From the NCBI RefSeq assembly GCF_003334815.1, contig NZ_QOWO01000021.1: DNA of 64,000 nucleotides. One strand, given 5' to 3'. The notes under the pieces are model-generated. The model was not told where the DNA came from, ran no database searches, and was given only the letters and a program-made list of their open reading frames with translations. Positions 1,184 to 5,315 of this stretch are shown here, piece after piece. Every line of letters begins with the position of its first letter. Within the stretch, counting starts at the first letter, position 1. The stretch is from Escherichia coli (lineage in GTDB: Bacteria > Pseudomonadota > Gammaproteobacteria > Enterobacterales > Enterobacteriaceae). The position numbers and the translations under genes were made by a program.

Positions 1184-1425
1184 GCAGCCCTGTCTCTGGC
1201 ACAGGGTAATAACGCTCTTGCCGGTGCTGCAGGTGCTGCCACCGGCGAGGTGGTGGGAATGATAGCTAGTACGGTAAGCCGGTGAGTGAACTGAGCGAGG
1301 CAGAGAAGCAGACGGTCTCGACACTGGCAACGGTTGCTGCCAGCCTGGCCGGTGGTCTGGTGGGAGACTCCGGTGCTTCAGCGGTAGCCGGCGCACAGTC
1401 AGGTAAGACGACGGTTGAGAATAAT
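1184..1425 (+). other. cdiA 3-prime homology handle (pre-VENN region) ending in the VENN codons at 1414-1425; interrupted by a stop at 1279-1281
   Basis: Translation gives Ala/Gly-rich ...[21 protein letters not shown]-stop then ...[47 protein letters not shown], typical of sequence preceding VENN in CdiA. Confidence 0.6.
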
Positions 1426-1923
1426 GCGCTGTCTGAGCTTGTGCCGCCTCGCGTACAGCAGGATGCTTCCCTGGCTTTTGATCTCAGTGGTAAAGGAGTC
1501 ACTAACGATGAAATTATCAAAGCGGTAGACAAATCACATATCGGCCCGTCAGTAGGTGATACGGCAAAAATACATGGAGATGTAAAAGGCCAGGTCGCTG
1601 GAGGGTATGTCGCAGGAGGGTATCTGGAAGGTGTACTGTCAGAGGATAAATTTTCAATTAATGGCGGGGTCACGAAGGTATTAGGCTGGCGTGCAGATGT
1701 GTCTGCCGGGTTGACTTTTGGGCCTTACCCGATTAAAGATTTTAATCCTACTTATGATTATTCTGGTGCTATATCGACAGGTATTTTTCAGTTGAAGGGA
1801 GTATTGGTAAAGACGGCTTTGGCGGTTCTTTCAGAGTTGGTGGAGGAATTGGTGCGAGTATTCGACAAAGTGAAAACAGTAATAATCAGCCGGAAATTAA
1901 CGGTTCTGGTAGTACCGAACTAA
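1282..1923 (+). CDS. Orphan CdiA C-terminal toxin cassette 1 (VENN at 1414-1425; toxin domain of unknown activity)
   Basis: GTG-initiated ORF containing VENNALS; the VENN motif demarcates variable CdiA-CT toxin domains. Confidence 0.65.
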
Positions 1924-1953
1924 TTTCTTGGCCTATAAAAAAGGACTAACCAA

Positions 1954-2409
1954 ATGATGTACTTGCTGTTAGGTATTGCACTTTCTGCTTTTACTGTCGG
2001 AACGGTTATGTTTTATCGATTTAGTAAAGTGACAGGAAGAAGCGTGCAATCACCTTTTACCCCAATGTTTTTTTTTGATGCTCTATTTTTTGGGCTAGGC
2101 AGCAGACGCGATATGAATATTGCTGCCTGTGCTTTTATGGTCTTTTTACTGAGTGTTTGGGGGTTCACCTATATAAAATTACGGACTAATTTTTGGGGAA
2201 GCCCTGAAAGTTATTTTGGTTTAGGGATTGTCGGAATTTTCTTTCTGATAATGCATTGTCGCTACGGTGCAAAGGATGTTGTTATCAAAAATGATGGTCT
2301 TGCACCAATAAGGGAGTTAATTAATGTTCATCAGTCTGGCCTCACCAGCCCATTTTTGTGGTTAAGTAGGGCAGGGTACCTCGGATGTTTAATTGGCATG
2401 ATAGGCTGA
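1954..2409 (+). CDS. Putative CdiI immunity protein for cassette 1 (polytopic membrane protein)
   Basis: 151-aa hydrophobic ORF starting 31 bp after the toxin stop; position is typical for an immunity gene. Confidence 0.5.
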   Translation: MMYLLLGIALSAFTVGTVMFYRFSKVTGRSVQSPFTPMFFFDALFFGLGSRRDMNIAACAFMVFLLSVWGFTYIKLRTNFWGSPESYFGLGIVGIFFLIMHCRYGAKDVVIKNDGLAPIRELINVHQSGLTSPFLWLSRAGYLGCLIGMIG

Positions 2410-2883
2410 TACAGTGTTAATGAAATTTGTGATAAATGCCAATTAGTTGTTGAGAATAATGCGCTGGGTAACAAGAATGACAAGCTGCCACCCATTATTC
2501 CGATAAATCCGCTGCCAATCGGGGTTGAAGGTGCAGATGGTGAGCTGCTGAACGGTGGTGGTGGGATAACTAAAGGCGGTAAATCTAAAGATACTCAAAT
2601 TTGGACAGAAACCAAGAAAGCAGAACCTGTAGGTAATGCCTATGGGCATTGGACAAAACATGGAAAAGAGTTTCCAGAGTATCAGAATGCGAAGCAATAT
2701 GTTGATGCTGCACATAATTTTATGACAAACCCACCGCCAGGTACTTTAACTAAAACCCGCCCTAACGGAAACACACTGTATTACAATCCTGTGACTAATG
2801 TCTTTGCTTCAAAAGATATAAATGGTGTACCGCGTACAATGTTTAAATCAGATAAAGGTATCGAATATTGGAACAAGCAATGA
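2410..2883 (+). CDS. Orphan CdiA-CT toxin cassette 2, no start codon (VENN at 2449-2460)
   Basis: Open frame beginning immediately after the cassette-1 immunity stop; translates ...QLVVENNALGNK... through ...YGHWTKHGKEFPEYQNAKQYVDAAHNF...IEYWNKQ; no ATG/GTG/TTG upstream of VENN, so it is missing from the ORF track. Confidence 0.6.
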   Translation, partial: YSVNEICDKCQLVVENNALGNKNDKLPPIIPINPLPIGVEGADGELLNGGGGITKGGKSKDTQIWTETKKAEPVGNAYGHWTKHGKEFPEYQNAKQYVDAAHNFMTNPPPGTLTKTRPNGNTLYYNPVTNVFASKDINGVPRTMFKSDKGIEYWNKQ

Positions 2884-3068
2884 TGAATAATGGTTCTTAT
2901 CCTTGTCCATGCTGTGGAAATAAGACAATTGATGAGCCGGGTTGTTATGAAATTTGCCCTATATGCGGATGGGAAGATGACCCTGTTCAATCGGCTGATC
3001 CAGATTTTTCTGGCGGGGCAAATTCTCCGAGTTTAAATGAGGCGAAACGAGCATTTAACGAACAGTAA
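2880..3068 (+). CDS. Putative CdiI immunity protein for cassette 2 (Cys-rich CPCCG...CPICG zinc-ribbon protein)
   Basis: Small ORF overlapping the toxin stop (ATGATGA); start may be 2868, 2880 or 2883; four-Cys motif. Confidence 0.5.
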   Translation: MMNNGSYPCPCCGNKTIDEPGCYEICPICGWEDDPVQSADPDFSGGANSPSLNEAKRAFNEQ

Positions 3069-3748: not shown

Positions 3749-3960
3749 AGCATCCCTTTATTTTTTTTACTCATTCTGATTTTAGTTTATTCAGCTGCAA
3801 GTGCATTAGCTTTTATACTAGTCGTTTGGCTTGTTTCTACACATCCATTATCAATGTTGGAAATAGTAAAATATGGAGAGTTAGGGATTTTAGTTGGAGC
3901 ATGGGGGGGGCTGGCATTTGGTTTTTATACTGGCTAAATTCCAGAAAAAGTAACAAATAA
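3745..3960 (+). CDS. Small hydrophobic protein, putative immunity partner of the glycine-zipper ORF
   Basis: 71-aa ORF with ATGA start/stop overlap with the upstream ORF; hydrophobic, Cys-rich N-terminal half. Confidence 0.35.
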   Translation: MKHPFIFFTHSDFSLFSCKCISFYTSRLACFYTSIINVGNSKIWRVRDFSWSMGGAGIWFLYWLNSRKSNK

Positions 3961-4797
3961 AGACTTATTGTTGAGAATAATTATCTTAGCGTGTCTGAAA
4001 AGACAGAGTTTGAGATAGCAAAACAGAAGCTTAAAAACAGTAAAGATCCGGCAGAGCGTGAAAAGGCACAGCAGAAATATGATGCATTGCTTGAAAAAGA
4101 TATTGCCAGTGATAAGGAGGTGATTGCTGCCTGCGGTAATGGTAATGCGGGTAGTTCAGCGTGTGCCAGCGCAAGACTGAAAGTTATTGCGTCGAAAGAA
4201 GGGTACGAAGATGGCCCTTATAACTCGAAATACAGCCAGCAATACGCTGATGCGTATGGCCAGATAGTCAATCTCCTCGATATCACCAGTGTTGATGTAC
4301 AAAATCAACAGCAGGTGAAAGATGCGATGGTGAGTTACTTCATGGCAACGCTGGGGGTTGACCAGAAAACAGCACAAGGTTATGTCGAGACGACGCAGGG
4401 ATTAGAAATTGCAGCGGTTTCAATGACACTATTATTTGGTCAGGCGGTGGTTAATAAAATCACTGCATTGGTTGATAAAGCGAATAAATATCCTTCAGGG
4501 ATTGGTTTTAAAATTAATCAGCCGGAACACTTAGCTCAACTTGACGGATATTCGCAGAAGAAAGGAATTAGCGATGCACATAATGCTGATGTATTCAATA
4601 AAGCTGTGGTTGATAATGGTGTGAAAATTATTTCTGAAACACCAACAGGAGTCAGAGGTATTACTCAGGTTCAGTATGAAATCCCCACAAAAGATGCTGC
4701 TGGGAATACGACTGGTAATTATAAAGGAAATGGCGCCAAGCCTTTTGAGAAAACTATTTATGATCCTAAAATATTTACAGATGAGAAAATGTTGTAA
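3961..4797 (+). CDS. Orphan CdiA-CT toxin cassette 3 (VENN at 3970-3981; listed ORF starts GTG 3991)
   Basis: Frame opens right after the stop of the preceding small ORF and reads RLIVENNYLSVSEKTEF...; ends at TAA 4795-4797. Confidence 0.6.
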   Translation, partial: RLIVENNYLSVSEKTEFEIAKQKLKNSKDPAEREKAQQKYDALLEKDIASDKEVIAACGNGNAGSSACASARLKVIASKEGYEDGPYNSKYSQQYADAYGQIVNLLDITSVDVQNQQQVKDAMVSYFMATLGVDQKTAQGYVETTQGLEIAAVSMTLLFGQAVVNKITALVDKANKYPSGIGFKINQPEHLAQLDGYSQKKGISDAHNADVFNKAVVDNGVKIISETPTGVRGITQVQYEIPTKDAAGNTTGNYKGNGAKPFEKTIYDPKIFTDEKML

Positions 4798-4944
4798 CTT
4801 GGACAAGAGGCAGCGGCAATTGGTTATTCCAATGCAATAAAAAATGGATTACAGGTATATGATGCAAAAGCCGGTGGTGTTACGTTCAGAGTATATATTG
4901 ATCAAAAAACAGGAATTGTAAGTAACTTCCACCCGAAATAGGAG
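4798..4944 (+). other. In-frame continuation of cassette 3 after the TAA at 4795-4797 (48 codons, ends TAG 4942-4944); possible toxin C-terminal segment cut off by a nonsense codon
   Basis: Same reading frame as 3961-4797; translates [47 protein letters not shown]; the immunity-like ORF begins 6 bp after its stop. Confidence 0.35.
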
Positions 4945-4949
4945 TAACT

Positions 4950-5315
4950 ATGAATAAATATTTATTTGAATTGCCATATGAACGTTCTGAACCTGGGTGG
5001 ACCATAAGGTCATACTTTGACCTTATGTATAATGAAAATAGGTTCTTGGACGCTGTAGAAAATATAGTTAACAAAGAATCTTATATTCTGGATGGAATTT
5101 ATTGTAACTTTCCTGATATGAATAGTTATGATGAAAGCGAACATTTTGAAGGTGTTGAATTTGCTGTCGGCTATCCCCCAGATGAAGATGATATAGTGAT
5201 CGTAAGCGAAGAAACCTGTTTTGAATATGTTCGTCTGGCCTGTGAAAAATATCTTCAGTTACACCCTGAAGATACTGAAAAAGTAAACAAATTACTGTCT
5301 AAAATCCCATCCTGA
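4950..5315 (+). CDS. Putative CdiI immunity protein for cassette 3
   Basis: 121-aa acidic ORF immediately downstream of the toxin frame; position only, no recognised motif. Confidence 0.45.

Follow-up and report, generated by a model that had tools for sequence, protein, structure and literature searches.

Does an array of toxin and immunity genes of a contact-dependent growth inhibition (CDI) system, with no delivery genes in front of it, still serve its host as a store of toxin tips or a source of immunity, or is it a relic? The question is raised by positions 78–5315 of the DNA analyzed here, a stretch of 64,000 nucleotides from Escherichia coli (NCBI RefSeq assembly GCF_003334815.1, contig NZ_QOWO01000021.1) that is called the window below. 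Tandem orphan cassettes, each consisting of a fragment for a C-terminal (CT) toxin tip of CdiA and its immunity gene cdiI, had been proposed for this region from the sequence alone (the original prediction). The locus is very probably an orphan cdiA-CT/cdiI array that is best read as a decaying relic left after the loss of cdiBA. It is an ordinary, degraded example of an already described kind, built from known parts, and two of its cassettes (2 and 4) match crystallized toxin-immunity complexes. What each part is, all of the lesions, and the loci of the parent type in related strains were observed directly; at most, the locus supplies three immunity proteins.

Composition of the array

The interpretation as orphan cdiA-CT/cdiI modules is borne out independently by Pfam matches, by homology to cdiA upstream of the VENN motif (pre-VENN), by solved complexes, and by related strains, whereas the number of cassettes has to be raised: there are five (0 to 4), not three, between positions 78 and 5315. 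Their toxin fragments are denoted T0–T4 and their immunity open reading frames (ORFs) I0–I4. The 12-mer GTTGAGAATAAT, which encodes VENN, occurs in the whole window in exactly the three copies that had been listed, all on the plus strand and starting at 1414, 2449, and 3970; it is absent from 100 of 100 dinucleotide-preserving shuffles, and thus no copy is expected by chance. These copies, as VENN or PT-VENN, stand at the start of the toxin fragments of cassettes 1, 2, and 4. Cassette 0 has the same feature in strains EC556 and FRIK944, and cassette 3 is a VENN-less toxin fragment. The VENN-less pair at 3227–3960 had been overlooked, as had a cassette tail at 78–348 with a DUF2569 gene (619–1140) and two lesions, a second one in cassette 1 and a nonsense codon in cassette 4.

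The arrangement of the cassettes is that of orphan modules. In two cases the toxin frame was said to open right after the stop of the preceding immunity ORF, and this is correct: TGA at 2407–2409 and the VENN codons at 2449 share a frame that is free of stops in between (YSVNEICDKCQLVVENN), and the same holds for TAA at 3958–3960 and the VENN codons at 3970. The distance from the previous stop to VENN is just 39 nucleotides in cassette 2 and 9 nucleotides in cassette 4, and neither T2 nor T4 has a translation start of its own. The cdiA homology 5' of VENN, which varies in length in such arrays, is found in cassette 1 (1167–1425). The cognate immunity gene lies directly downstream of the toxin fragment, with ATGA overlaps at 2880 and 3745 and gaps of 4 nucleotides between T1 and I1 and of 8 nucleotides between T4 and I4.

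Most of these parts are broken. Of the five toxin fragments, only T2 has escaped inactivation by an insertion sequence (IS), frameshifts, truncation, or a nonsense codon, and it is without a start codon. Frameshifts affect two of the five immunity ORFs (I0 and I3), and I1, I2, and I4 are intact. Each lesion was mapped by alignment with an intact copy.

The array is also without its parent genes. As had been stated, the window contains neither cdiB nor a full-length cdiA: the ORF list for the 64 kb includes neither, the largest ORF being a helicase of 1093 aa, and neither gene is listed in the colinear annotation of EC556. The position downstream of cdiBAI is thus found neither in the window nor in EC556, and it is found in the relatives A19 and 52F4.

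Cassettes with solved relatives

The toxin fragment T2 (2410–2883, plus strand) contains VENN at 2449–2460 and a toxin domain at 2617–2880. In a PDB sequence search this domain is identical to 8EY4_A at 84 of 88 positions (E = 2e-56), and the immunity protein I2 (2880–3068, plus strand), a cysteine-rich protein of the CPCC type, is identical to chain I of 8EY4 at all 62 of 62 positions and identical to 8EY3 as well. Cassette 2 is therefore close in both partners to the complex from an O32:H37 strain (8EY4, 8EY3), for which a literature search on 8EY4 found no relevant paper. The T2 CT is intact, although its first in-frame ATG, GTG, or TTG does not come before 2722. I2 is undamaged, and its start codon and the T2 stop share an ATGA.

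T2 has no match in Pfam, and its assignment to a fold comes from an AlphaFold model, in which residues 61–144 have a predicted local distance difference test (pLDDT) score of about 90. The best Foldseek match of the model is 8EY4, with a template modeling score (TM) of 0.92. The next matches are colicin D tRNase domains (1V74, 5ZNM, 1TFK, and 1TFO) with E about 1e-3, TM of 0.52–0.57, and 19–22% identity; the values for 1V74_A are E = 9.8e-4 and TM 0.54. The likeness of the predicted fold to the colicin D tRNase domain is modest, and on the model T2 is probably a colicin-D-like tRNase with the BECR fold.

Homologues of T2 (36 proteins, P0001–P0036) are all at most 251 aa long, being orphan or partial fragments, and none of them is a full-length CdiA with an 8EY4-type tip. 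Two, P0030 and P0031, have Rhs-type N-termini with DPxGL-like motifs. These two could be taken as a sign that the cassettes came from another polymorphic-toxin system, such as Rhs with a type VI secretion system (T6SS) or a MafB-like one. Such an origin has next to no probability and was rejected: every VENN-bearing fragment in the array carries PT-VENN or cdiA-type pre-toxin sequence, in A19, 52F4, and 2017.17.03CC and on plasmid pM11 the same modules follow cdiA, in part with cdiB as well, and the adjacent genes include no Rhs core or T6SS gene.

The second cassette with a solved relative is cassette 4. T4 (3970–4941, plus strand) combines VENN, a PtsG-type cytoplasm-entry domain, and an EndoU tRNase domain of the STEC_O31 type. 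The entry domain matches PDB 6VEK over residues 2–172 (E = 3e-70), and the nuclease, read through its stop, is identical to 5HKQ_A at 140 of 143 positions, with Q in 5HKQ at the stop position. T4 lies in a frame that opens at 3961, and the sole start candidate in it, GTG at 3991, comes after VENN.

The nearest described system is the STEC_O31 CdiA-CT/CdiI pair (5HKQ), an EndoU-fold tRNA-Glu(UUC) anticodon nuclease with PtsG-dependent entry. The catalytic residues listed for this toxin (PMC9086364), H187, H204, K261, T262, and H321, are all encoded in T4, and Y5, C55, and C65 of the entry domain are conserved. T4 differs in three respects: (i) the codon for Gln276 is TAA (4795–4797), (ii) G203D stands beside H204, and (iii) no CdiA body is joined to the fragment. 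Because of the TAA at codon 276, the catalytic His321 (at 4930) lies past the stop and is severed from His187, His204, Lys261, and Thr262, so that no single polypeptide carries the complete active site. This stop is also part of the A19 and 52F4 annotations.

The immunity gene I4 (4950–5315, plus strand), which encodes the CdiI of the STEC_O31 EndoU toxin, is intact and has an AGGAG ribosome-binding site. It matches NF033826 over the full length of the model (positions 1–118 of 118) with 200.7 bits at a cutoff of 60, the sole NCBIfam match among the ten ORFs tested, and 5HKQ_I over residues 1–121 (E = 2e-81).

Frameshifted and truncated cassettes

The remaining cassettes were compared with intact copies in other strains and on plasmids. 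Cassette 1 begins with a cdiA remnant (1167–1425, plus strand) that ends in VENN (1414–1425). Alignment of the pre-VENN region, which could have refuted the original prediction, gave 92% identity to the full-length cdiA of strain 2017.17.03CC, a 7-kb hemagglutinin-repeat gene (L002:14001-14265). The predicted homology thus stood, but the interruption that had been put down to a stop codon goes back to a frameshift and not to a simple nonsense codon: the loss of 7 bp between 1268 and 1269 exposes stops.

Classification of the CT domains with profile hidden Markov models, also suggested, was successful for cassette 1 (PT-VENN plus Ntox25) and gave no Pfam match for T2 and T3. In cassette 1, the Pfam PT-VENN match has E = 2e-19, and T1 (1414–1949, plus strand) matches Ntox25 (PF15530) with E = 1e-65. 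The latter match covers only model positions 1–126 of 168 because T1 has lost 1 bp in the T-run at 1784–1788, which is T5 in the window and T6 in EC556 and 2017.17.03CC, where the domain is complete. The T1 stop is now at 1921–1923, and the original one was at 1947–1949. T1 had no match in the PDB sequence search. We know of no activity of Ntox25. The candidate immunity gene against the Ntox25 toxin, I1 (1954–2409, plus strand), is intact, has an AAGGA ribosome-binding site, and encodes a hydrophobic protein of 151 aa with three amino-acid differences from the 2017.17.03CC copy and no match in Pfam, NCBIfam, or PADLOC.

Between cassettes 2 and 3 lies the 3' fragment of a symE-like gene (3076–3237, minus strand), which abuts the truncated T3. 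Its product is 44% identical over 36 aa to that of the SymE ORF at 6074–6328 (E = 3e-10), and at the nucleotide level it is 70–73% identical to annotated SymE-family genes. A search for an intact copy found only these genes and plasmid copies truncated by IS66. We read the fragment as the scar of a former array end. In the window, the right-hand end is formed by an IS200 leader and tnpA (5361–5952, plus strand; tnpA 5494–5952; Rfam STnc490 and RefSeq annotation), followed by a complete symE-family type I toxin gene (6074–6313, minus strand; RefSeq), which is convergent with the array. Genes of the SymE family seem to recur at the right-hand borders of CDI arrays. In strain ERP001, too, a symE-family gene adjoins the terminal cdiI. 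Rfam has no SymR or other regulatory RNA within the array, the only match being the IS200 leader STnc490. This match to an Hfq-binding small RNA (5361–5484, 140.6 bits) is the 5' leader of the IS200 copy.

T3 (3227–3748, plus strand) is the C-terminal 173 aa of a glycine-rich CT, as seen from the intact copies of pM11 and A19. It is missing VENN and about 130 N-terminal CT residues; the intact CT has 303 aa from VENN and is found in the CdiA (3338 aa) of plasmid pM11 and as an orphan in A19. T3 is 30% identical to the C-terminal domain of T0 (E = 8e-11) and has no Pfam or PDB match. The small immunity ORF I3 (3745–3960, plus strand; 71 codons) was aligned with its copies in pM11, A19, and 52F4. 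It has T8 in place of T7 (3765–3772) and G8 in place of G9 (3894–3901), which puts the middle 48 codons out of frame, and the hydropathy analysis showed that the hydrophobic segment is lost. By comparison with pM11 and A19, I3 is thus a frameshifted membrane protein. The lesion is common to the independently sequenced strains EC556, 52F4, and C5.

Cassette 0 is cut by the left edge of the window. Positions 1–77 are the left end of an IS5-like element, ISKpn26 (minus strand; 100% match to annotated ISKpn26 copies), whose transposase ATG is at 9..7 and reads leftward out of the window. The element is inserted at CTAG within the cassette-0 toxin. EC556 is without it at this place, its homology beginning at window position 78, and a search of complete E. 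coli genomes with window 1–620 as the query found ISKpn26 at this site in none of them.

Only the last 11 codons and the stop of the glycine-rich T0 remain in the window (78–113, plus strand; compared with EC556 and FRIK944), its body lying past ISKpn26. The EC556 annotation lists T0 (L001:18077-19014) as a pseudogene, a VENN pre-toxin with a frameshift. In the O157:H7 strain FRIK944 it is intact, a glycine-rich fragment of 278 aa and 28.5 kDa with VENN, in a frame that begins immediately behind a stop codon.

The small membrane immunity ORF I0 (82–348, plus strand) was aligned with its copies in E62 and FRIK944, where it has 91 aa and ends in GGGAGMLAGIGIWIKAK. A 2-bp deletion, which produced a G9 run at 276–284, shifts its C-terminus out of frame and replaces the C-terminal hydrophobic segment of the E62 and FRIK944 proteins; its Shine-Dalgarno sequence is lost, replaced by the IS insertion. 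The frameshift is common to the window and the independently sequenced EC556. Downstream of I0, as also in E62 and O157:H7 strains, is a gene for a DUF2569 membrane protein (619–1140, plus strand; RefSeq annotation) with three hydrophobic regions and no match in PADLOC. The protein has an N-terminal Cys-rich motif, and in E62, O157:H7, and EC556 the gene is always placed between I0 and the next orphan.

The homopolymer tracts in I0 and I3 vary by lineage: I3 has T7 or T8 and G7, G8, or G9, and I0 has G6AG4 or G9, the frame being altered each time. Homopolymer differences could include sequencing errors. These tracts could be seen as phase-variable (contingency) switches that would toggle immunity to the glycine-rich, presumably ionophore toxins, a reading related to the one in which the intact immunity genes are kept as an immunity-only island. 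We consider this improbable and retain the interpretation of the I0 and I3 frameshifts as part of the decay of the array.

Loss of the parent locus

Where did the parent cdiBA go? The original prediction placed the parent locus, if any, elsewhere in the genome; most likely it was lost from this very site. Window positions 78–16778 are 99.95% identical to the chromosome of EC556 and its sisters EC571 and EC581, pig isolates from Japan, and identical DNA, largely annotated, is present in four complete genomes. The window differs from EC556 by the ISKpn26 insertion, by one IS3 copy fewer, and by three small differences in the first 6.6 kb. The array lies in a genomic island at pheV (tRNA-Phe), whose right-hand border is formed by an integrase gene and tRNA-Phe beside yqgA and speC; in EC556 a kps capsule cluster is situated farther left. 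To the left of cassette 0, where cdiA would be expected, EC556 has only a gene of 137 aa and then IS66 tnpA. This gene is a lone immunity gene; in E62 it follows a fragmented cdiA as the immunity gene of that cdiA.

Related strains preserve what is missing here. In A19, a vampire bat isolate, cdiB, a 9.5-kb cdiA, and cdiI are followed by intact T3/I3, T4 with its stop and I4, IS200, symE, and the same hsd fragments. In 52F4, orphans come after a full-length cdiA, and from the CPCC gene on its annotated gene order is that of the window; over window 3069–3969 (901 bp, comprising the symE scar, the truncated T3, and I3) the two are 98.6% identical. Strain 2017.17.03CC has its own cdiA and cdiI, which are followed immediately by cassette 1, cassette 2, and the initial 250 bp of the truncated T3. 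On pO113-like plasmids of Shiga toxin-producing E. coli (STEC), IS66 interrupts a segment with T2, the CPCC gene, and the symE scar, and in the O157:H7 strain FRIK944 cassette 0 and the DUF2569 gene lie directly upstream of the annotated CdiA-o11/CdiI-o11. The array is a detached remnant, because there is no cdiBA upstream here, whereas A19 (cdiB and cdiA) and 52F4 (cdiA) have the same tail behind it. We interpret it as a fusion of two array types, joined where the former array end, marked by the symE-like gene, met the interior of T3; cdiBA would have been lost later, an order of events that we infer.

An alternative is a working toxin reservoir, in which a functional cdiBAI elsewhere in the genome would exchange tips with the cassettes at the VENN-coding sequence, as was proposed for orphan arrays (PMC3150448). 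In its favor, T2 retains every invariant residue of a 17-sequence family alignment, and 248 bp of homologous pre-VENN sequence still precede the VENN codons in cassette 1. The alternative is nevertheless highly unlikely given the inactivation of four of the five toxin fragments, and recombination would find hardly any pre-VENN homology in cassettes 2 and 4. The search for matching pre-VENN sequence elsewhere, recommended with the original prediction, revealed on the EC556 chromosome, at blastn sensitivity, only two places: cassette 1 and the presumed cassette 0, the latter a 78% match in a separate comparison. The preferred reading is thus still that of an array whose cdiBA was lost from this site.

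Residual function

In an intact system, a module would recombine onto cdiA via the conserved pre-VENN/VENN sequence, CdiA would deliver the toxin tip to neighboring cells, and the downstream immunity gene would shield the producer. Here delivery is impossible because CdiB and the CdiA body are absent. The sole plausible remaining activity would be protection by I1, I2, and I4, provided that they are still transcribed: I1 would counter the Ntox25 toxin, I2 the colicin-D-like 8EY4 toxin, and I4 the EndoU tRNA-Glu nuclease. Present-day immunity is thus a function that we infer. If the three intact immunity genes are expressed, they would confer resistance to three defined CdiA toxin types, which matters only for modeling of competition between E. 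coli strains.

Could selection for this protection have shaped the locus? According to this explanation, the array is an immunity-only island that protects a CDI-negative strain against Ntox25, 8EY4-type, and STEC_O31-type toxins, and the toxin fragments are decaying passengers. I1, I2, and I4 are intact, and each has a ribosome-binding site. The I2 protein does not differ between three unrelated contexts (the window, 2017.17.03CC, and plasmid L007) or from the PDB entry, whereas T2 gathers amino-acid changes. In 2017.17.03CC (L002:17036), a Tyr replaces a His that is invariant in the T2 family (GHWTKH to GYWTKH) next to an unchanged CPCC immunity protein. This invariance of I2, set against the changes of T2, gives a hint of selection. 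There are also precedents: EC93 expresses an orphan CdiI, and Salmonella Typhi, which has no cdi locus, carries an islet with an orphan CdiI (PMC3150448, PMC9086364). On the other hand, I0 and I3 are frameshifted, and the lesion pattern alone is no sign of selection for immunity because lesion densities are similar in toxin and immunity DNA. An immunity-only island under selection is a tenable possibility, somewhat on the doubtful side.

Several points weigh against a relic with residual immunity as it is proposed here. The upstream region known to drive transcription of the EC93 orphan is missing, and promoter-like sites are not above chance, which counts against the immunity-only island as well. 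By our count, about 6 lesions fall in 3.7 kb of toxin DNA and 2–3 in about 1.5 kb of immunity DNA. The deletion in the T1 T-run at 1784 is seen in the window alone and may be a sequencing error. Finally, the sequence to the left of the window in the source genome was not in hand, and cdiBA could sit beyond the IS or elsewhere. As to the promoters, a scan of the array gave 9 sigma-70-like sites against 15.3 in shuffled sequence; with fewer sites than expected by chance, the scan is uninformative about immunity expression.

Comparison with described orphan modules

Orphan arrays downstream of cdiBAI were described as EC869 o1–o11 and EC93 o1 (Poole et al., 2011; PMC3150448), and modules without start codons, without VENN, or cut by an IS were already among them. 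The array studied here shares with these arrays VENN-demarcated modules, toxin fragments without start codons, immunity genes closely linked to or overlapping the toxin stop, a length of pre-VENN cdiA sequence that varies between cassettes, interruption by an IS, and one VENN-less fragment. It differs from them in that no cdiB or cdiA precedes it, either in the window or in EC556, that most of its toxin fragments and two of its immunity ORFs have become pseudogenes, and that two array types are fused at the symE-like scar. The general features, including the variable pre-VENN remnants and the persistence of immunity genes, have all been described previously (PMC3150448, PMC9086364).

A specific parallel is provided by EC869 o10, whose CdiA-CT is a membrane-depolarizing ionophore with a reported mass of 29.5 kDa and whose CdiI has two transmembrane helices (PMC7858069). 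T0 resembles it in its place in the O157:H7 genome, before o11 and after an SSuT-interrupted region, in its mass of 28.5 kDa, in being glycine-rich, and in the small hydrophobic ORF next to it; the identity of T0 with o10 is thus based on position and properties and not on a sequence comparison. The difference is that the window keeps only 11 codons of T0 and that I0 is frameshifted. By this analogy, T0 and T3 are probably membrane ionophores, both being glycine-rich with small hydrophobic immunity partners.

Immunity genes that persist without cognate delivery are also known, namely the orphan CdiI islet of Salmonella Typhi and orphan clusters of P. aeruginosa (PMC9086364). As in those cases, immunity genes outlast the delivery system here; the differences are that the toxin fragments are still alongside and that two of the five immunity genes are broken. 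The locus therefore serves as a worked example of the breakdown of a CDI island after cdiBA loss, in which lesions of various kinds disable the toxin tips first and homopolymer runs are the sites at which the small membrane immunity genes break. Beyond annotation it has little significance; in the RefSeq record of EC556, T2 (2410–2883) and the ORFs of I3 (3745–3960) and I0 (82–348) are not annotated.

Neighboring genes

The complete symE-family gene is followed by fragments of hsdR and hsdM. The region 6563–14361 comprises an hsdR C-terminal fragment, an hsdM N-terminal fragment, and the 1093-aa DEAD/DEAH helicase, which has weak matches to PbeA and to restriction enzymes. After the helicase come a protein of 440 aa without a match and a 5'-nucleotidase-like protein that matches the PADLOC candidate PDC-S08 (E = 1.7e-134). 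This region may be a defense gene cluster. The gene at 14553–15359 on the minus strand is annotated in EC556 as a restriction endonuclease binding phosphorothioated DNA, with an internal stop. The IS3 copy that the window is without would be at about 16773, beside a phosphoethanolamine transferase gene in EC556, and beyond 16773 the identity to EC556 is 98.6%. In the core-genome part of the window, Rfam matches to small RNAs are naRNA4 (CssrE) at 32008–32078 and ES036 (CssrF) at 60464–60506.

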